Of a DNA stretch of 33,848 nt, positions 453 to 33,848 are shown one piece after another. The translations under genes were made by a program, and so were the position numbers. The stretch is from positions 1 through 33,848 of the IMG/VR virus record IMGVR_UViG_3300014208_000095; one strand, written 5' to 3'. Position 1 is the stretch's first letter. Each line of letters opens with the position of its first letter. The DNA comes from a virus (lineage: Duplodnaviria > Caudoviricetes). The notes beneath the pieces were generated by a model. It was not told the DNA's origin and made no database searches. It was given only the letters and a program-made list of their open reading frames with translations.

Positions 453-479
453 AAAAAGCCCTCGTTATGAGAGCTTTTT
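453..479 (-). terminator. Intrinsic terminator, possibly bidirectional
   Basis: Minus strand AAAAAGCUCUC-AUAAC-GAGGGCUUUUU spanning the stop codon of the 73-aa ORF. Confidence 0.75.
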
Positions 480-686
480 TAACTTATCAAATTGGTCTCG
501 CTTGATGTAGATTGGATCGCCTTTTTTTAAGTCCTTGTAGGCATATCCGATTTTCCATGCGAGTTCATTGAGTACTATTGTCGGTTCTTTGTCAGGCTCT
601 ACACACATGTTTGGTTTTTTCTCCATAGAGCACCACAAAGACCTCAATGTTTTCCCTCCTAACGGAGAGATAAGTGTTAGAAACAT
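465..686 (-). CDS. Hypothetical protein, 73 aa
   Basis: ORF with ATG behind GAGGT and a hairpin-rich leader, ending in a terminator; no recognised motif. Confidence 0.55.
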   Translation of the reverse strand: MFLTLISPLGGKTLRSLWCSMEKKPNMCVEPDKEPTIVLNELAWKIGYAYKDLKKGDPIYIKRDQFDKLKKLS

Positions 687-957: not shown

Positions 958-1000
958 TGTGGATAAGTGGCTTGAACAGGTGGATTGACTGTGATAAGAT
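958..1000 (+). promoter_or_regulatory. DnaA box plus sigma70-type promoter (TTGAAC-17 bp-TAAGAT, extended -10 TG)
   Basis: TGTGGATAA 958-966; TTGAAC 972-977; TG 992-993; TAAGAT 995-1000. The predicted start near 1007 coincides with the first hairpin of the structured RNA. Confidence 0.6.
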
Positions 1001-1006
1001 ATAGGT

Positions 1007-1176
1007 GCTCGAAAGAGCGGACAACTAACAAGGGTTTTGTTTACAAATTAGAATATTAACAAAAGCTTTTTAGGAAAACTCTTCGGGAAGTTACTTCGGT
1101 AATTTCCTTAGAGAAATCTAGGGGCAGTGGGAGCAATCCCCCTTCCCGACTAGTTGTCCTGAGAAGCTTTTTTTTT
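1007..1176 (+). ncRNA. Unclassified highly structured RNA or leader (four-way junction, four canonical tetraloops, 3' U-tract)
   Basis: GCUC-GAAA-GAGC; 15-bp stem 1061-1075/1157-1171 with 2 G-U pairs; stem 1083-1090/1142-1149 enclosing UUAC-UUCG-GUAA, UAGA-GAAA-UCUA and GGGA-GCAA-UCCC; T9 at 1168-1176. Confidence 0.75.
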
Positions 1177-1228
1177 GTTCTTTTACAATACACCGTGAAA
1201 TTAAACTGACGGAAGGAGGTGCATGTGC

Positions 1229-1351
1229 ATGACTCAATTCAAGCCAAGAAGTTCTGTTACTGGAAGATTTGTAAAATCCTGGGTAGAAAAGAAATACCCT
1301 AAGACGACGTATGTTGATATGATCCGTTATCCAAAGAAAAAACAGGCTTAG
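1229..1351 (+). CDS. Small basic protein, 40 aa, 'RS..TGRFV......P.TT' family of unknown function
   Basis: AAGGAGGT SD 8 nt before ATG; MTQFKPRSSVTGRFVKSWVEKKYPKTTYVDMIRYPKKKQA. Resembles, from memory, a widespread family of ~45-aa proteins. Confidence 0.75.
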   Translation: MTQFKPRSSVTGRFVKSWVEKKYPKTTYVDMIRYPKKKQA

Positions 1352-1399
1352 GACCTGTTAATTCATAACGCTTTTTACTCACCTCACGGTGTATTGCGA
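1333..1399 (-). ncRNA. Putative ~65-nt antisense sRNA convergent with the 40-aa gene
   Basis: Bounded by the promoter at 1434-1406 and a hairpin plus U-tract (AACAGG-UCCUAAG-CCUGUU-UUUUCUUU, 1359-1333). Confidence 0.5.
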
Positions 1400-1405
1400 G
1401 AGAAA

Positions 1406-1434
1406 AATGTACCATTTTGGTACTGATTTGTCAA
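1406..1434 (-). promoter_or_regulatory. sigma70 promoter TTGACA-17 bp-TACATT with extended -10 and an overlapping palindrome
   Basis: TTGACA 1434-1429; TG-G-TACATT 1414-1406; palindrome GTACCA-TTT-TGGTAC 1409-1423. Confidence 0.65.
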
Positions 1435-1544
1435 GTATACCACTTAACTCAATCTTTGTGATGGGGATAAGTCCCCTCTCCCCTATTCTATTATAGTCCT
1501 GTGGATAATATTTTAGCTCTGTTGAGCTATTTTTATTATATTAT

Positions 1545-1572
1545 CTTACCTCTCTCCATGCAGAGAGGTAAG
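1545..1572. terminator. 11-bp hairpin, probable end of the late transcript
   Basis: CTTACCTCTCT-CCATGC-AGAGAGGTAAG downstream of the last lysis gene; no clear U-tract. Confidence 0.5.
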
Positions 1573-1659
1573 GAATACACCCACTTTCGTGAGTACCATT
1601 ACATCGTATTCAGCCAGGTACTAGCTATCATGTGTTCGCTGGCACTACGGGGGTAATAG

Positions 1660-1902
1660 TTATCTTTTAATAAAAGAACGAATCCATCCCCACACATGCA
1701 ACGCCCCAGTCACAAGAAAACCTCCATAGATAATCACGTTATAAACTGCGTCGGCATAAGATTGTAAATTCCCTTCGGTAACTTCTGCTCCTTGAAGTTT
1801 TACGACAAGCACTATAATTGGGATAAGCATGTACAAAAGAGATTTTACTCTCAAAGCTAGTTGCTCTTGATTTTGACTTGAACCGAGAAATCTTGGATAC
1901 AT
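1660..1902 (-). CDS. Holin-like membrane protein, 80 aa, 2 TM
   Basis: Two hydrophobic segments and a basic C-terminus; directly follows the peptidase. Confidence 0.65.
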   Translation of the reverse strand: MYPRFLGSSQNQEQLALRVKSLLYMLIPIIVLVVKLQGAEVTEGNLQSYADAVYNVIIYGGFLVTGALHVWGWIRSFIKR

Positions 1903-1911
1903 AGTATTAAA

Positions 1912-3009
1912 TTAAGAGTTAAATAGTTCTGGAAAATATTTTTTGTAGCCTTCTAAAAGATTTTTATCAACAAGTGCCCTTACTCTGTCTTTTGCTAATT
2001 CCTTTTCTTGTGGGCTTACCCAACTAATATCAATCTCTGAACCATATTCGATAGAGGGTAATATATTTTCTTTGTCTTCTATAGCCTCACTCAAAATAAA
2101 ACCTTTCATATTGAGGATTTGTTCATCTACAAAATGCCATTTTTTACTATCTTGAATAAGATAAATCTTTGGACCATTCAATTCTTTCACTAATTTACCT
2201 TGAAACGCAGATAGAAATGAAAGTACATCTTTCGGCATATCGGTGTTGAAGTACACCCCTGCGTCAAAGACTTTTGCAATATCCTCAAACTTTACATAGA
2301 AACATCCATCCACGCCATAGCGTTCGCTATAATGATTTCTTACTTTTGCTACTTTAAATCCATGATAATTCAAAATATGTCCACCAATAGCTGTGCAATG
2401 TCCGCCAACTAAATAACCGTTATATGGAGTAATAATTCCATGTTGATCTGGTTTATTGTAGCCTGAATACCAGTTACCCCCTGTATGCCCTATCTTTCCA
2501 TTGTCTAGTTCTTCTAAAATCTTATTGAGGTCATAGGTTTTATAGTAACTAGCACTTTTGTGTTTACTTGCATTTTGTAGATTTTCAGTCGTTAAAATAT
2601 TTGGATTCGAAAACTGTTCCCAGGAAAGATTATACTCACTCTCATCGTAAGTTTTATCAGGGATACCAACATCGACAAGTGCCTTTTGAAAATAAGAAAG
2701 TGATGTGCCTCGATCGGTCATTTGTCCTTTACTTCTTAAATACGCTGCCATCCACCTCGCCCATAAAACAGTACCCTCGTCTTTTTCTTTTTGTTCTGCA
2801 CCACCTTCGCAGACACAGGTATTCAAGTTTTTTTGGTTTCTCATCTGAATACCCGCAAGGTTGTCTACTTCCTGGAACTTTGGTGTATAGCTTCCTTTCA
2901 AGGCACTAAAAATACTTGACTGCACAAAGTCTCGGTCATCTTGCAATTCTTTGAGATAACCCCCTCTATGTTTCCATTGAAGATATTTCTCAATTAGTTT
3001 TTTAAACAT
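1912..3009 (-). CDS. Papain-fold (C1A-like) cysteine peptidase with C-terminal binding domain; putative endolysin or processing protease
   Basis: D.RDF pro-motif, RNQKNLNTC (oxyanion Q and catalytic C), GGHCTAIGG (His), VRNHYSERYGVDGCFY (variant of NSWG..WG..GYF); lies between holin-like genes. Confidence 0.8.
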   Translation of the reverse strand: MFKKLIEKYLQWKHRGGYLKELQDDRDFVQSSIFSALKGSYTPKFQEVDNLAGIQMRNQKNLNTCVCEGGAEQKEKDEGTVLWARWMAAYLRSKGQMTDRGTSLSYFQKALVDVGIPDKTYDESEYNLSWEQFSNPNILTTENLQNASKHKSASYYKTYDLNKILEELDNGKIGHTGGNWYSGYNKPDQHGIITPYNGYLVGGHCTAIGGHILNYHGFKVAKVRNHYSERYGVDGCFYVKFEDIAKVFDAGVYFNTDMPKDVLSFLSAFQGKLVKELNGPKIYLIQDSKKWHFVDEQILNMKGFILSEAIEDKENILPSIEYGSEIDISWVSPQEKELAKDRVRALVDKNLLEGYKKYFPELFNS

Positions 3010-3130
3010 ATAGTGAAATTAAGTACCAAATTAAAAGAAAAATAGCGAACGCGATAGTTGCGAAAAAACCAACCTTAATGAAATGAATAATGAGCCTTCC
3101 CACATTGATGAACCATTGTCGTATAGACAT
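3002..3130 (-). CDS. Small single-TM protein, 42 aa
   Basis: Translated by hand: MSIRQWFINVGRLIIHFIKVGFFATIAFAIFLLIWYLISLYV. AT-rich AAAAAT-ATG start; overlaps the peptidase start by 8 nt. Confidence 0.55.
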   Translation of the reverse strand: MSIRQWFINVGRLIIHFIKVGFFATIAFAIFLLIWYLISLYV

Positions 3131-3144
3131 ATTTTTGGGGATTG

Positions 3145-3161
3145 GGGGACGGAGTGTCCCC
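3145..3161 (-). terminator. GC hairpin closing the GC-rich cassette
   Basis: GGGGAC-ACUCC-GUCCCC begins in the TAG of the last zinc-ribbon gene; no U-tract follows. Confidence 0.45.
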
Positions 3162-3364
3162 TATTGGGCGTGAAACTGGGCGAGGACGTTGACGGTGGCT
3201 CCCATGAGCACGTAGTGCTCGAACCCGCAGGTGAAGCAGACGTAGTCGGCGTAGACGTTGCCGCAGATGACGTTGACGCTGTGGCGGTCGATGACGTGGA
3301 GACGCTTGATGCGACACTTGGGGCACACGAGCGTCGGCTGGATGTACTTCTCGTCGAGCTTCAT
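3161..3364 (-). CDS. Small zinc-ribbon protein, 67 aa (CPKC...CFTC)
   Basis: Two CxxC knuckles; GGAGGT-N5-ATG; codons mostly end in G/C. Confidence 0.8.
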   Translation of the reverse strand: MKLDEKYIQPTLVCPKCRIKRLHVIDRHSVNVICGNVYADYVCFTCGFEHYVLMGATVNVLAQFHAQ

Positions 3365-3365
3365 G

Positions 3366-3518
3366 CTAGACCTCCGTGTGCGCCCAGTAGTGAGCGCAGT
3401 GGTCGCAGTAGAGCTTGTCGATGACGTGAAAGAGCTTGCGCTCTCGCTTCCAGTTGTTCCAGTCGAACCAGACTTTGATGTACTTGCCGCAGAGACGACA
3501 TTGAAGGATGATAATCAT
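3366..3518 (-). CDS. Small zinc-ribbon protein, 50 aa (CRLC...CDHC)
   Basis: Translated by hand: MIIILQCRLCGKYIKVWFDWNNWKRERKLFHVIDKLYCDHCAHYWAHTEV. GGAGG-N5-ATG; ATGA overlap with the upstream stop; ends 1 nt before the next ATG. Confidence 0.8.
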   Translation of the reverse strand: MIIILQCRLCGKYIKVWFDWNNWKRERKLFHVIDKLYCDHCAHYWAHTEV

Positions 3519-3748
3519 GCAGCCCTCCTCCTGTCCTTCTTGAGGGGCTTCACGTCCTTCAGCTCGTGCTGGTACGCCATGCCTTCCTTGACCCGTCGCG
3601 CGTCCTCCTCGTCACGCTTCTTGGGCCAGTGGGGGCTTTTGGAGTAGTTTCCCTGGTGGCTTCCGCACCAGTCGCACTCCTCGATGGTGATACCCTCGAC
3701 TCCGCCGTAGTCACCCATCCTGAGTCCGCAACCGCATTGCGTTTTGAT
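3515..3748 (-). CDS. Small zinc-ribbon protein, ~77 aa (CGC...CDWC, charged tail); start uncertain
   Basis: Same frame as ORF 3515..3799. SD GGAGGT (3759-3754) lies 5 nt before an in-frame ATC at 3748; the upstream ATG 3799 falls inside the leader structure. Confidence 0.65.
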   Translation of the reverse strand: MKTQCGCGLRMGDYGGVEGITIEECDWCGSHQGNYSKSPHWPKKRDEEDARRVKEGMAYQHELKDVKPLKKDRRRAA

Positions 3749-3777
3749 AGCACACCTCCATCCAGTTAGCACTGTTG

Positions 3778-3857
3778 TTGAGACGCCCCACCCATCCATG
3801 AGTGGGTGTCAATCGGACAAGCATCACGATTGAGTGGGGAGTCTCAATGTAAAGAAC
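3778..3857 (-). promoter_or_regulatory. boxA-like motif plus three-way-junction RNA leader of the zinc-ribbon cassette
   Basis: GTTCTTTACATT (3857-3846); P1 UUGAGAC/GUCUCAA, P2 UCAAUCG/CGAUUGA, P3 CACCCA/UGGGUG. Confidence 0.65.
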
Positions 3858-4114
3858 TAATTATTTAACTTATTATGCGGACAACCTTCAATTCTTCCTG
3901 ATAATCTCTCTAATGTTTGCATCAACTCTTTGTGCGTCTCACTCATTTTTTCGTATGCTTTGGTGTTATGGTCAAAATGATTATTAAGCGTTGTGTTGAA
4001 CATCACATCTCTTTCTTGTTGGAGTTTATCTTTACGAATCATGTAATAGATAAGAACGACGACTGCTCCGAGACTGCCTCCTGCTGAAATTACCTTTATC
4101 AAAAATTCCTCCAT
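3857..4114 (-). CDS. Single-TM holin-like protein (BhlA/UviB-like architecture), 85 aa
   Basis: N-terminal hydrophobic helix plus coiled-coil tail; located in the lysis region. Confidence 0.6.
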   Translation of the reverse strand: MEEFLIKVISAGGSLGAVVVLIYYMIRKDKLQQERDVMFNTTLNNHFDHNTKAYEKMSETHKELMQTLERLSGRIEGCPHNKLNN

Positions 4115-4115
4115 A

Positions 4116-4352
4116 TTATTCCAGTGTTAATTCTAATCCGAGTTCTGCATTGATTGCGGTGATTTCTTGTTCTAAACGCACTACAATTGCTTGATTTTCT
4201 TCCTGGTCTGATTTTCCTCGTGCTTCCATTAAAATACCCTCTGTTATCGTATTTTTTGCGTTCTTATAATCCACTCGCATTTTTTCTATATCCATTTTTA
4301 TTTTTGGAGCTTCTTCAAGTTTAAATATTTCTCCGTTTTCTTGTATGAACAT
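4116..4352 (-). CDS. Hypothetical acidic coiled-coil protein, 78 aa (possible fibre chaperone)
   Basis: Coupled TAA-T-ATG to its neighbours, downstream of the fibre gene. Confidence 0.65.
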   Translation of the reverse strand: MFIQENGEIFKLEEAPKIKMDIEKMRVDYKNAKNTITEGILMEARGKSDQEENQAIVVRLEQEITAINAELGLELTLE

Positions 4353-22169: not shown

Positions 22170-22709
22170 TTAAGCTGATACATCTTGTGCCATTCTATAA
22201 ACAGTTGCGTAAACTTCTACATCAAGTGTGCCTTTATAAATGTCTCCATCTATAATGGCTAACCCACCCGTGTCTGCTGGAGTATCTGAAGCGGTTTTGA
22301 TTGTATATAATTCTCCGCCATCAGTCGCACCAGTTGCATTGTAATCGAAGGTTACTGTGTCGTTTATAAAACCTAGTAATTCTGCCGCAGTATCGATATT
22401 GGCTGCAGTCTCTACCTTTCCTCTGATTAACCCAGAATGGGCTACAGGACACGCACATTGCACCTTTTGTGCAACGAGTGTTCCTGATTCAAATGGATTC
22501 GCACCCTTCAATGCAACACCACCAAACAAATGAGTCCCTAAAATAGGAAAATCTTCAGCTGCTAATACAAATGTATTATCTGAAGCTACACCTGTTGTGT
22601 ATGTTCCTTTAGAATAGAGAGGTTCACCCGCTTCGAATCGTGTTGCTGAAGCAGCCACTCGCCTGTTGCGAGTAAACTGTACTCCATGTACACTCAGATC
22701 ATTTCTCAT
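22170..22709 (-). CDS. Putative capsid cement/decoration protein B, 179 aa
   Basis: Lies between scaffold and capsid; full-length paralogue of the upstream gene. Confidence 0.6.
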   Translation of the reverse strand: MRNDLSVHGVQFTRNRRVAASATRFEAGEPLYSKGTYTTGVASDNTFVLAAEDFPILGTHLFGGVALKGANPFESGTLVAQKVQCACPVAHSGLIRGKVETAANIDTAAELLGFINDTVTFDYNATGATDGGELYTIKTASDTPADTGGLAIIDGDIYKGTLDVEVYATVYRMAQDVSA

Positions 22710-22722
22710 ATAATAAAGGTTA

Positions 22723-23256
22723 TTAAGTTACATCTTGGTCGATGCGATATACTGTTGCATAACATTCAATATCCAAAGTTCCTTTTGCTGCATTACCATC
22801 AATGACAACGAATCCTGAAGTATCCGCTGAAGCGGCAACTTTAATCGTATAAAGTTCCCCGCCATCAGTTCCACCTGTTGAGTTATAGTCAATCAATGTG
22901 GTATCGTTGATGATTCCGAGGATTTCTGAATCAGTATCAACTGATGCTAGTGTTTCACCTTTTCCTCTAATAAGACCTGCATGAGGTACTGGACAAGCAC
23001 AAACTGCTGTCTGAGCTACCAAAGTTCCTGTCTTATAAGGCAATGCACCTTTTAATGCTACACCACCAAGAGTATGTGTCCCCAAAACAACAGTATCGGC
23101 TGCTGCCAAAGTCCATACATTAGCCGAAGCCACACCTGAACCATCCATGGTTGCAGTTGAATGAATTGGCTCTCCTGCCTCAAAACGTGTTGCTGAAGCG
23201 GCAATTCTTCTTTTTCTGGTAAATGTAATACCATGAACTGATAAATCTGCTCTCAT
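22723..23256 (-). CDS. Putative capsid cement/decoration protein A, 177 aa
   Basis: Shares AASATRFEAGEP, GGVALKGA, CACPV.H.GLIRGK and TDGGELYTIK with 22170..22709. Confidence 0.6.
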   Translation of the reverse strand: MRADLSVHGITFTRKRRIAASATRFEAGEPIHSTATMDGSGVASANVWTLAAADTVVLGTHTLGGVALKGALPYKTGTLVAQTAVCACPVPHAGLIRGKGETLASVDTDSEILGIINDTTLIDYNSTGGTDGGELYTIKVAASADTSGFVVIDGNAAKGTLDIECYATVYRIDQDVT

Positions 23257-28634: not shown

Positions 28635-30395
28635 TTAGTCTCGATTAGTTAACTCGTATTCGTATTCGTTCATGCCACCTAATGAATCTCTGTAGGCTTC
28701 TACCTCTCCTGCTTTGATTTGTCCTTTATATATTTTATCGTTAACAACAAATTCTTTTATCATGCGAGCGATTTCAAATTCCCCCTCTCCCATAATAGGA
28801 TCTTCTTCTTCAGCCGTTATACTATCTACACAAATAAGGTTAGCTACAATCTGAGATGAATGTTCAACGGCGTAATAAATAGCTTCAGCAGGATCAATAA
28901 CATCTTCACCAATATCTATTCCTCCATCAATACTTGATTGAATTTGCTCATAAGGAGCTAAAAGAGTTGATTTTAATATATTGTCTTCTGATAGTCCTTC
29001 GGATATTTCTTTCAAACAGAGTCCTCCACCTTTCACATAGCCACCTCTTAAAGCTGCTTTACATGCGTATACAGCGTCTTCAATCTTCAATTTGGTATAA
29101 AGTGAATTAGCCTGGGTACTGTCTCCGACTCGTATAACTCCTACAGCAGAAGCCATTGAGGCGATACGTCGTCTAAGTAAATTCTTGAATTGTTCTTGAC
29201 GTGTTTCTTCTAACTGACTTTTTAAAACCTCAATACGTTCTTCTACCTGTGATTTTTGCTCTGCTATCACAGCATCCTTTTGTTCACTTACTTGTTTTAG
29301 TTGTTTTATATGAGTTCCACCACCGCCAGTTGCGATGGCATCTTCCTTATTTTCAGTGTCCTTCACAACCATTTTTTCAACAAATCCTAAATCTAATTCT
29401 GTAATGGATGAAAGACTATCTCCTTTGTTTTTATCGATAAATTTAGCTCCAAAATATATAGAAACATCTTCTAGTTGTTCAGTTCTAAGTGAAGGAATAA
29501 GCACAGGGAACAAATCATAGTTTCCTTTCGTTACAACTACCCCTCCATCTTTTCCAGATACTACATTAAAACTTGCTTTGTAAAGTTGATTTAAAACATC
29601 ATTTGAAAAACTTGGAGCCAAAATAGCTATCTTAGGATGCTTGTTTAACAAGGGGTTCAGAATATTTGCCAATTGTATTGAATTATCTAGTGCGTAATTT
29701 GTAACAATAACATCGCTATCTTTGATAATCATTTCAAACTTATCTGGCTTGTTTACAAACCCTTTCGCAGCTGTCTTAGCAGGAAAACGCATACCCTTAA
29801 TCACCTCGGTCTCAATTTCTCCCTTATACCCTTCAACAACATCAATAAATCCATCAACTCCAACTTCCCATGCCATCCCTGCAACAAGTTTACCTAGCTT
29901 TTCATCCTTTACTGAAATGGTAGCTATTTTCTCTAATTCTACTAAAGATTCAACTTTTTTCGCCATTTCTTTAATCTTTTCTTTAACTTTTTCAGCAGAT
30001 TCTAAAATTTTCCTCTTCAAAGCGACAACTCCAACCTTACCTCCTACTCCTATCGCACTAAAATTTTTATCTAAAATACCTGATACTTCATTAAAAAGTT
30101 TTCCTCCAAGAATTGCTGTACACGTAGTTCCATCTCCAACTTTTTCAACCGTTCGCTTGCAGCCCTCTCGAAAAGTCTGAGCAACCATTCTCACAAATTG
30201 GTCTTTTGGTTCTTGACACTCAGCAACTGTTACTCCATCATCCGTCATTCGGTTCCCTCTGTTCATTGTACGATATAATAATGCACTTCTTCCTTCAGGT
30301 CCAAACGTAGCTCTAACTGGTTCATATATGGCATTTACACCATTTTTTAGTGCTTCACGAGCTTTTTTACCTGATATTGTTCGAGTTGTTCGCAT
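28635..30395 (-). CDS. groEL: Phage-encoded GroEL-like chaperonin, 586 aa
   Basis: TFGPEGR, TDDGVTVA, VGDGTT, RRIASMASAVGVIRVG, KIEDAVYACKAA, GGG, VIDPA; no GGM tail. Confidence 0.92.
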   Translation of the reverse strand: MRTTRTISGKKAREALKNGVNAIYEPVRATFGPEGRSALLYRTMNRGNRMTDDGVTVAECQEPKDQFVRMVAQTFREGCKRTVEKVGDGTTCTAILGGKLFNEVSGILDKNFSAIGVGGKVGVVALKRKILESAEKVKEKIKEMAKKVESLVELEKIATISVKDEKLGKLVAGMAWEVGVDGFIDVVEGYKGEIETEVIKGMRFPAKTAAKGFVNKPDKFEMIIKDSDVIVTNYALDNSIQLANILNPLLNKHPKIAILAPSFSNDVLNQLYKASFNVVSGKDGGVVVTKGNYDLFPVLIPSLRTEQLEDVSIYFGAKFIDKNKGDSLSSITELDLGFVEKMVVKDTENKEDAIATGGGGTHIKQLKQVSEQKDAVIAEQKSQVEERIEVLKSQLEETRQEQFKNLLRRRIASMASAVGVIRVGDSTQANSLYTKLKIEDAVYACKAALRGGYVKGGGLCLKEISEGLSEDNILKSTLLAPYEQIQSSIDGGIDIGEDVIDPAEAIYYAVEHSSQIVANLICVDSITAEEEDPIMGEGEFEIARMIKEFVVNDKIYKGQIKAGEVEAYRDSLGGMNEYEYELTNRD

Positions 30396-31785: not shown

Positions 31786-32025
31786 TTATTTCCAGGTGAT
31801 AGCTTTCACCGCCCACATCTGAGCTGTTTGAGCTTCTGTAATTGCGACAGAAAATAGTCTACCTTTCTCACCTTGCCCTGCGTCCAATCTCCCTTCGTTA
31901 CAAAGGTCGATGATTTGAGCATATAATGCTTTGACTTTATCCACCAAAGCATTACCCCCTGGATTAAACGTCAGACCGACTGCTTTCTCACCATAGGTGA
32001 GTTCACGTGTTTCTTGTCCTTCCAT
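31786..32025 (-). CDS. Acb2/Tad1-like helical-hairpin protein, 79 aa (candidate immune-signal sponge)
   Basis: GEKAVGLTFNP...RLFSVAITEAQTAQMWAVKAITW resembles the R..[SA].A.T..[EQ].A.MW hairpin of the Acb2/Tad1 family. Confidence 0.6.
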   Translation of the reverse strand: MEGQETRELTYGEKAVGLTFNPGGNALVDKVKALYAQIIDLCNEGRLDAGQGEKGRLFSVAITEAQTAQMWAVKAITWK

Positions 32026-33152: not shown

Positions 33153-33848
33153 TTAAACAATTATTTTGCCGTCTTTAATTCTGCCTTTTTCTTGTAAGAG
33201 TTTTATTGCTTTCTCTATTTCATCATCTTTTTTCGTTGGCACAAGTCCTGTAATTCGTGTAAATATTGCTTCGTCCCATTCAGGCAAACTCATAAGATAA
33301 TCAATAGCGTCTTGTGGCATACCTTCCCACGCTTTAGCTGGCTTACCCCATTCATTAAGTGTTGACCACATTTTAGAAGCGTCTACTTTTTTCCAATCAT
33401 TCCCATTTTGCAAATATAATTCAAATCCATTATTAAATGTCGGTTTCCAACCATTGAGCTTGTTTTTGTATTTTGTCATTACCTCGTCAATTCTTTCCTC
33501 AGTTACTTTTGTCTTGAATAATTTGAAACACACTCCTTTTTCATCAGCAACAAACAAACAATTATATACCCCATAAGAGTTTATGACTGCGTCAGACCCA
33601 TTGACTGCGTTAGACCAATTGACTGCGTCAGACCCATTGACTGCGTTAGACCAATTGACTGCGTTAGACCTATTGACTGCGTTAGACCAATTGACTGCGT
33701 CAGACCTATTGACTGCGTCAGACCTATTGACTGCGTTAGACCCATTGACTGCGTTAGACCCATTGACTGCGTTAGACCCATTGACTGCGTTAGACCCATT
33801 GACTGCGTTAGACCCATTGACTGCGTTAGACCCATTGACTGCGTTAGA
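33153..33848 (-). CDS. 5'-truncated hexapeptide-repeat (S[ND]AVN[GWR])n phage protein
   Basis: The repeat frame TCT AAC GCA GTC AAT GGG runs without a stop into ...SDAVINSYGVYNCLFVADEKG (ORF 33153..33557). The C-terminal AW..MP..AIDYL.SLPEWDEAIFTRITG resembles that of phage Asn/Gly-repeat proteins. Confidence 0.8.
   Translation of the reverse strand, partial: SNAVNGSNAVNGSNAVNGSNAVNGSNAVNGSNAVNGSNAVNRSDAVNRSDAVNWSNAVNRSNAVNWSNAVNGSDAVNWSNAVNGSDAVINSYGVYNCLFVADEKGVCFKLFKTKVTEERIDEVMTKYKNKLNGWKPTFNNGFELYLQNGNDWKKVDASKMWSTLNEWGKPAKAWEGMPQDAIDYLMSLPEWDEAIFTRITGLVPTKKDDEIEKAIKLLQEKGRIKDGKIIV
33585..33848. repeat. 18-bp tandem repeat, at least 15 units, running off the window end
   Basis: GACTGCGT(T/C)AGACC(C/A/T)ATT units start every 18 bp from 33585 to 33837. 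Confidence 0.97.

Follow-up and report, generated by a model that had tools for sequence, protein, structure and literature searches.

The virus record IMGVR_UViG_3300014208_000095 (Duplodnaviria; Caudoviricetes), analysed here over its full 33,848 nucleotides (the window, 33.8 kb), derives from a tailed phage with terminase, capsid, GroEL-like, CHAP and peptidase genes, which start in AT-rich contexts without a Shine-Dalgarno (SD) sequence. Two small units near one end follow a different pattern: cassette 1 (972-1540, + strand) contains a single gene for a basic mini-protein, and cassette 2 (3857-3145, - strand) contains three genes for Cys-rich proteins (Table 1). A match of at least 5 nt to the anti-SD precedes 4/4 cassette genes and 0/28 hand-curated core starts (p=3e-5), which bears out an earlier interpretation of this DNA (the sequence-only reading) that had reserved strong SDs for these four genes. 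The letters and coordinates reported there are also correct, i.e. the boxA-like motifs GTTCTTTTACAAT (1177-1189, +) and GTTCTTTACATT (3857-3846, -) at the heads of the cassettes, the SD AAGGAGGTG (1213-1221) and GGAGG at 3759, 3531/3528 and 3375. The same combination of a boxA-like motif and an SD recurs in front of accessory genes across Patescibacteria, including bacteria whose 16S rRNA has lost the anti-SD.

A possible exception outside the list of 28 core genes is the open reading frame (ORF) 465-686 (-), in which GAGGT precedes the ATG and AGGAGGG an internal TTG. This small ORF, with a G+C content at third codon positions (GC3) of 0.45, is preceded by a GC-richer hairpin stretch (700-830) and is possibly a third, weaker unit. 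The deviant codon usage that had been proposed for the cassettes is found in cassette 2 (GC3 0.81-0.93), whose codons are sharply unlike those of the phage core (TAC 10/10, CAC 11/11, GAC 12/12) and whose GC content is 0.57 versus 0.38; it does not extend to cassette 1, which lies at the top of the core range (GC3 0.35-0.38).

Table 1. Sequence features of the two cassettes; positions refer to the window.
Feature	Position	Strand	Basis or remark
Cassette 1
Sigma-70-like promoter, TTGAAC-17-TAAGAT with TG extension	972..1000	+	sequence reading; absent from the site list of the consensus scan; predicted to drive cassette 1 transcription
GAAA-loop hairpin at the predicted 5' end	1007..1018	+	fold
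Multibranched RNA fold (UUCG and GCAA loops, long closing stem), then a U run	1060..1176	+	inverted repeat; adjoins the motif
boxA-like motif GTTCTTTTACAAT	1177..1189	+	one mismatch to GYTCTTTAANA; rank 1/67,674 by the Patescibacteria matrix
13-bp stem around the mini-gene (perfect pairing), 5' arm	1186..1198	+	inverted repeat, fold
Shine-Dalgarno sequence AAGGAGGTG	1213..1221	+	sequence
40-aa basic mini-protein, R-S-A-x-T-G-x-F-V family	1229..1351 (alternative start 1223)	+	homologue search
3' arm of the 13-bp enclosing stem	1384..1396	+	fold
Promoter-like TTGACA-17-TACATT with TG	1406..1434	-	consensus scan; predicted antisense RNA over cassette 1
Hairpin and T run, candidate cassette 1 terminator	1514..1537	+	scan; faces a holin-like gene
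Cassette 2
boxA-like motif GTTCTTTACATT	3846..3857	-	rank 82/67,674; directly after the stop of ORF 4114-3857
Leader hairpin, 70 nt, between motif and first SD	3778..3847	-	fold z -4.2
77-aa Cys-rich protein (CxC, CxxC), GC3 0.81	3515..3748	-	ORF reading; ATC start 5 nt after GGAGGT
50-aa protein with two CxxC, GC3 0.82	3366..3518	-	ORF reading; SD AGGAGG
67-aa Cys-rich orphan, GC3 0.93	3161..3364	-	ORF reading; SD GGAGGT
6-bp GC hairpin directly after the last stop, no U tail	3145..3161	-	fold

The boxA-like leader motif

The near-identity of the two cassette motifs, which the sequence-only reading had taken as a signal, is at the level of chance, since 1048 of 3000 random window pairs align equally well. 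The motif count in the window (2 versus 0.03) is post hoc, and the gamma-proteobacterial boxA consensus GYTCTTTAANA, from which the cassette motifs differ by one and two mismatches, occurs at chance when up to two mismatches are allowed (112 versus 110). The weight of the motif comes only from an outside scoring matrix, learnt exclusively from chromosomal leaders of the Patescibacteria genomes G709 and G161; phages were never included. An unseeded motif search on the SD-led leaders of these two genomes returned TGTTCTTTGAAA, present in about 83% of them. With this matrix, position 1176 (+) scores best in the window and the motif of the related phage G007 is the best of 58,842 positions; the rank of the cassette 2 copy corresponds to a chance of about 0.15 per 130-nt leader. 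As far as can be judged from sequence, the outside matrix thus supports the motif strongly for cassette 1 and weakly for cassette 2.

Similar motifs are present in the rRNA leaders of the Patescibacteria genomes G144, G597 and G770, and a more distant form is found in G161, G121 and G179. Just as in cassette 1, the motif in the rRNA leader of G144 continues into the leader-trailer stem. The motif was also considered as a -10 box and rejected by eye: there is no -35 box at 17 nt, and the chromosomal motif sits downstream of clear -10 boxes. NusB is encoded in 10/10 Patescibacteria genomes tested, from which the true host of the phage may differ. Rho was found in 0/5 incomplete genomes (the control search was positive in 9/14), making protection against Rho an unlikely purpose of the motif. 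In the anti-SD-less order described below, NusB occurs in 5/5 genomes as a NusB-NUDIX fusion of about 300 aa, encoded between rpmF and the RNase III gene (L231:1766-2668, L232:1137-2048); in the other five genomes tested it is a stand-alone protein.

SD-led accessory genes in Patescibacteria chromosomes

Chromosomes were searched for a boxA-like motif followed after 3-33 nt by AGGAGG, with the reversed pattern as control. Among 251 Patescibacteria genomes, 170 matches (169 without the unpublished G162) stand against 53 in the control, and the excess persists when G161 is left out (150 versus 53). Matches exceed the control in 86 genomes and fall below it in 32 (p=7e-7). The 81 genomes in the class of the bin G009 give 73 matches versus 13 (hand-summed), and E. 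coli K-12 (4.6 Mb), the sole control genome from outside the Patescibacteria, has none versus one. In a sample of 30 loci, 17/29 matches lead an ORF of at least 30 aa. The motif is linked to SD-led genes within single genomes as well: in 373 kb of G161, partly picked around matches, it precedes 20/95 SD-led and 1/249 SD-less genes. The genes for rpoB, rpoC, recA, efp and ssb, recognised by eye, are SD-less in G161, and its SD-led set consists of orphans and paralogue arrays. In one such array (G161:C1:24800-38700; L056-L057), a separate motif and SD stand before each of about ten paralogues.

The layout of promoter, boxA-like motif, SD and accessory gene is, on the evidence of these genomes, phylum-wide in Patescibacteria. 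The proposal of a class of boxA-like-tagged, SD-led messages with a distinct initiation grammar therefore stands, both for Patescibacteria and for SD-poor phages. Neither of the outcomes that had been named as speaking against it was observed, i.e. a background frequency of the motif without a link to SD-led genes, or a host with genome-wide SDs carrying unrelated recent morons. No description of such a class was found in the literature searched, which did not extend to supplements and subscription papers, and the accessible parts of PMC6851277, 10.64898/2026.10.21.760802, PMC13059738 and PMC13753749 contain nothing on it. The gene class is undescribed and paradoxical, and the phage carries a real instance of it.

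Persistence of SDs after loss of the anti-SD

Most of the Patescibacteria classes sampled keep the anti-SD. Its loss has been reported (PMC9297842), and in the order of G186 the 16S tail lacks CCUCC in 108/108 genomes with a readable end (161 searched); one extra contig in G813 has CCUCC. The boxA-like motif with AGGAGG is nevertheless found in 49/161 genomes of this order, with 86 matches versus 53 in the control (p=0.006), and at 14 of 20 loci it leads an ORF of at least 35 aa. In the G186 order, the class survives anti-SD loss; the bins with relatives of the phage belong to anti-SD-keeping classes.

In G709 (379 kb), AAGGAGG lies 4-9 nt before ATG 51 times versus 7 at 15 other spacings (p=5e-21), while permuted motifs are flat. 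The boxA-like motif precedes 13/88 SD-led versus 1/231 SD-less genes of G709, and one of its units shares a contig with the 16S gene that lacks the anti-SD. Equivalent spacing counts are 8 versus 1 in G671, 4 versus 0 in G684 and 3 versus 0 in G770, all small numbers, and the 16S tail of G770 is unread. The SD-led genes of G709 are ameliorated (GC3 0.35 versus 0.32) and retain exact SDs. Of the 88 SD-led proteins, 54 were picked once probable false starts had been set aside; Pfam matches were obtained for 20 of the 54, none of them ribosomal, and include NAD salvage, HD, SET, NUDIX, ClpX-like and radical SAM proteins. In the anti-SD-less genome G655, an apparent tmRNA 3' end is followed by a promoter, a boxA-like variant and a perfect AAGGAGGTGAT, behind which lie an ORF of 77 codons and an extended structured tail (L151:7230-7750). 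A 14-mer shared with a G655 unit gave three viral matches, none of them relevant.

Related phages and the presumed host

Capsid relatives of the phage are found in seven viral contigs (54-74% identity) and in two genome bins (58% and 71%), one titled Patescibacteria and the other Gammaproteobacteria; the binning may be wrong. The latter bin (G009, L020) shares its class with Patescibacteria genomes in the genome set. On the basis of these two bins, the phage host is likely, though not certainly, a Patescibacterium. In the class of G008, the 16S end is readable in 68/201 genomes and contains CCTCC in 67 and TCTCC in one; the class of G009 includes anti-SD-bearing members.

Among nine related phage records, one (G007) contains a cassette; the other eight have none in the sequence covered, and most of them end before the lysis region. 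The G007 cassette has the same layout, combining TATAAT and GGTCTTTGAAA with a long hairpin (z -3.7) and no fewer than four small genes led by AAAGGAGG, which are unrelated in sequence to the cassettes of the window; its GC3 shift is slight (0.55-0.61 versus 0.53 in a portal stretch). Homologous cassette DNA was not found in the seven viral relatives, most of which end before the cassette region. Direct relatives of the cassettes were also not detected by DNA word, by the 67-aa protein or by the peptidase, and the search of metagenome contigs led back to the record of the window itself (L238) alone. Viral contigs scanned for a -10 box, the motif and AAGGAGG gave 23 matches. Thirteen of these matches lead an ORF of at least 30 aa outside another gene; eight of the 13, including one near-identical pair, lie amid SD-poor genes, and several encode small Cys-rich proteins. 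UGA-recoded genomes were not found among the matches listed.

RNA structures and products of the cassettes

Both cassettes had been described as opening with a motif that runs into a stem and as ending in a hairpin. The stems are real, but only in cassette 1 does one enclose the gene, namely the 13-bp stem starting within the motif (z -2.8); cassette 2 has a local leader hairpin and the 6-bp 3' hairpin without a U tail. Protection of the mRNA ends by an enclosing stem, suggested as a trait of the class, is not supported as such, as a leader-trailer match of at least 12 bp is present in 0/58 chromosomal units. The region 995-1176 upstream of the cassette 1 motif is strongly folded (z -4.8); the structured RNA at 1060-1176 has no Rfam match; it could act as an attenuator ahead of the cassette or be a non-coding RNA in its own right. 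The short hairpin at 1007-1018 occupies what we take to be a boxB-like position. Rfam and tRNA/tmRNA (ARAGORN) scans gave no match to a riboswitch, ribozyme, intron or tRNA. Promoter-like sites in the window as a whole are at chance (12 versus 12.7). The promoter scan found no promoter of cassette 2's own, and this cassette is therefore likely read from the late transcript.

The cassette products give no firm function. The mini-protein of cassette 1 is basic and soluble, without the character of a hydrophobic toxin, and belongs to a widespread family (13 matches at E<=0.001, best identity 63%), of which P0002 likewise starts with MTQ; one named member is actinobacterial and annotated as "hypothetical". 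It has no Pfam, PHROG or NCBIfam match, a word search was empty, and the ESM Atlas returned only unnamed clusters under 0.9. In cassette 2, the 77-aa gene starts with ATC (3748-3746) instead of ATG. A 70% identical homologue has Met at this residue, and the ATC recurs in contigs from a second study, which are identical in letters across 3215-4173. Leads for the 50-aa protein are a weak match to PHROG 1257 ("ribosome associated inhibitor A; zinc finger", E 0.0011) and a weak match to bL33 (E 0.09). A search with the 67-aa protein returned only itself, besides zinc-finger Pfam matches under the cut-off and one spurious match (L001).

Possible messages for a partner cell and competing explanations

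Bacteria that have lost the anti-SD thus retain SDs by the dozen, at exact spacing and linked to a leader motif of the rRNA type, and the combination is copied by phages. A different ribosome is the simplest reading of this paradox, because the cells that keep the SDs exactly spaced are unable to pair with them. The explanation we tentatively prefer, at somewhat less than an even chance, is that the two phage units are copies of the second gene grammar found across Patescibacteria and that their messages would be addressed to SD-reading ribosomes, those of the partner cell that the presumed Patescibacteria host feeds on. Slightly more doubtful is the general form of this idea, in which Patescibacteria would mark mRNAs with boxA and SD so that they are delivered to the partner cell and translated there, and phages would have entered this channel, thereby expressing genes in the host of their host without infecting it. 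In the proposed sequence of events, the RNA polymerase of the infected cell would make the cassette RNA, and NusB-S10, bound to the motif, would deny access to local ribosomes in the manner of E. coli suhB, where a boxA near the SD blocks translation (10.1101/091223). The RNA, or in a variant the DNA, could then cross the cell contact, e.g. via the type IV system that is widespread in Patescibacteria, mostly without a relaxase (PMC12102498). In the partner cell, the small basic and Cys-rich products might adjust conditions for late phage growth or release. Every step beyond the sequence grammar itself, namely transfer, expression and NusB binding, we infer.

If true, this would be a categorically new form of effector delivery, of mRNA instead of protein, and a three-way phage biology. 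Independently of this, the grammar supplies a sequence rule by which candidates for host-acting genes can be chosen in this huge, uncultured phylum, and it makes the manipulation of partners by Patescibacteria and the cargo of the relaxase-less type IV system directly testable in existing co-cultures. The part that does not depend on transfer is rated as a variant of known parts, i.e. boxA-tagged mRNAs and morons.

Several observations weigh against translation in a partner cell. The excess of matches in the G186 order is concentrated in few genomes, with 37 above versus 31 below the control (p=0.54). G186, G655 and G597, which were sampled regardless of matches, give a pooled spacing count of 5 versus 3 (p=0.048) and no strict boxA, and a looser pattern in five anti-SD-less genomes gives 17 versus 15. 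The strong cases, G709 and G161 among them, were picked for their many matches, and their sequence was partly fetched around these. An rpsB-like housekeeping gene in G184 has an SD-like site. Among the phages, the cassette of G007 is the only one in nine related records, most of them cut before the cassette region; the layout also occurs in phages that do not look Patescibacteria-like (L239, L240), and a second pattern matched an SD-rich phage and a dissimilar phage. The ATC start of the 77-aa gene would lower translation in any cell. The suggestion of a second cell, which had come from the sequence-only reading, gains indirect support from the survival of the class after anti-SD loss, while the bins with phage relatives fall into anti-SD-keeping classes and the phage's own host may read these SDs itself.

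Translation in the infected cell is accordingly possible for this phage, given the classes of its relatives' bins, and an own-cell Nus regulon is a close rival, the more so for the same reason, even if we consider it rather unlikely. The units would be transcribed and translated in the Patescibacteria cell, NusB-S10 would provide fast, rRNA-like processive transcription or gate translation, the SD would be read conditionally, and the phage would use the system for timed late expression. This agrees with the retention of the anti-SD in most classes, with the thin SD class of some anti-SD-less genomes and with NusB in all ten genomes tested. Cassette 1 copies the layout of the G144 pre-16S region, boxA plus leader-trailer stem (PMC10250234), and Bacteroidia ribosomes hide their anti-SD and expose it conditionally (PMC7797042, PMC13000453). 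Base pairing does not explain why SDs stand by the dozen at exact spacing in G709, G671 and G684, whose 16S tails lack CCUCC, so that a protein reader would be needed, and Rho was not found in the five incomplete genomes searched.

Import of morons is less probable still: the small genes would have come from SD-using organisms with their own signals, the SD being a relic and the motif a chance occurrence or hitch-hiker. The foreign composition of cassette 2, the actinobacterial members of the mini-protein family, the absence or unrelatedness of cassettes in related phages, the chance-level match of the two motifs taken alone and the ATC start, which may be decay, are all in line with import. 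It leaves unexplained why one leader motif is common to unrelated cargo and why paralogue arrays with host-like GC3 keep a motif and an SD on each gene (G161, G709); the pattern is also missing from the 4.6 Mb of E. coli K-12, the one control genome. The 13-bp enclosing stem, absent from all 58 chromosomal units, the convergent promoter-like site at 1434-1406 and the structured RNA upstream could alternatively make cassette 1 alone a sense/antisense-controlled or RNase III-processed small RNA unit, similar to a type I toxin-antitoxin system and unrelated to cassette 2. We regard this as very improbable, as the peptide is basic, soluble and of a widespread family instead of a membrane toxin, and the cassette 1 motif is the phage's best match to the host class; this reading is compatible with the others, not exclusive of them. 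Membership in the type I toxin-antitoxin systems proper was rejected, the product not being a small hydrophobic toxin and the antisense RNA being only predicted.

Relation to known systems

The cassettes share with the rrn boxA, bound by NusB-NusE(S10), and the pre-16S helix (PMC10250234) the motif family, the location close behind the promoter and, for cassette 1, a closing stem adjacent to the motif. In contrast to rrn boxA, the cargo is an mRNA with an SD, the stem has only 13 bp and is not general, and Rho was not found in the hosts tested. The boxA mRNAs of gamma-proteobacteria, such as suhB, similarly carry a boxA-like element tens of nucleotides from the SD (10.1101/091223), and for the cassettes a block of ribosome loading is likewise predicted. 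The gamma-proteobacterial mRNAs are reported there for few Nus-factor genes in SD-using genomes and are Rho-coupled, whereas the class described here comprises dozens of accessory genes per genome, in addition to phage genes, in SD-poor genomes, some of which lack the anti-SD. Bacteroidia with an SD-led rpsU (PMC7797042, PMC13000453) provide a parallel for a mostly SD-ignoring genome that keeps strong SDs on special genes; unlike Bacteroidia, which keep and hide the anti-SD, the G186 order has lost it, and its SD set is a large one made up of accessory genes.

Like phage morons, the cassettes are small and self-contained, have an unusual composition and are inserted close to lysis genes; cassette 1 has a candidate promoter and terminator. 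They differ from morons in their common host-derived leader motif and in an initiation signal unlike that of the rest of the phage; for cassette 2, no promoter was found.

Further features of the window

A 32-nt near-palindromic site at 93-124, which we take to resemble a Xer dif site, is common to many unrelated contigs in all four runs and may be a phage integration site or a resident host motif; a sigma-70 promoter with a perfect 12/12 match (395-423, -) is directed at it. An Acb2/Tad1-like anti-defence protein is encoded at 31786-32025 (-; Pfam E 2e-11). The GroEL-like chaperonin gene (28635-30395, -) has a position before the terminase gene that is kept in relatives, and a tandem pair of paralogous structural genes (22170-23256, -) precedes the capsid gene, with one or two copies in relatives. 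The contig ends in 18-nt tandem repeats (33581-33848); G002 relatives contain other tandem repeats in early genes.

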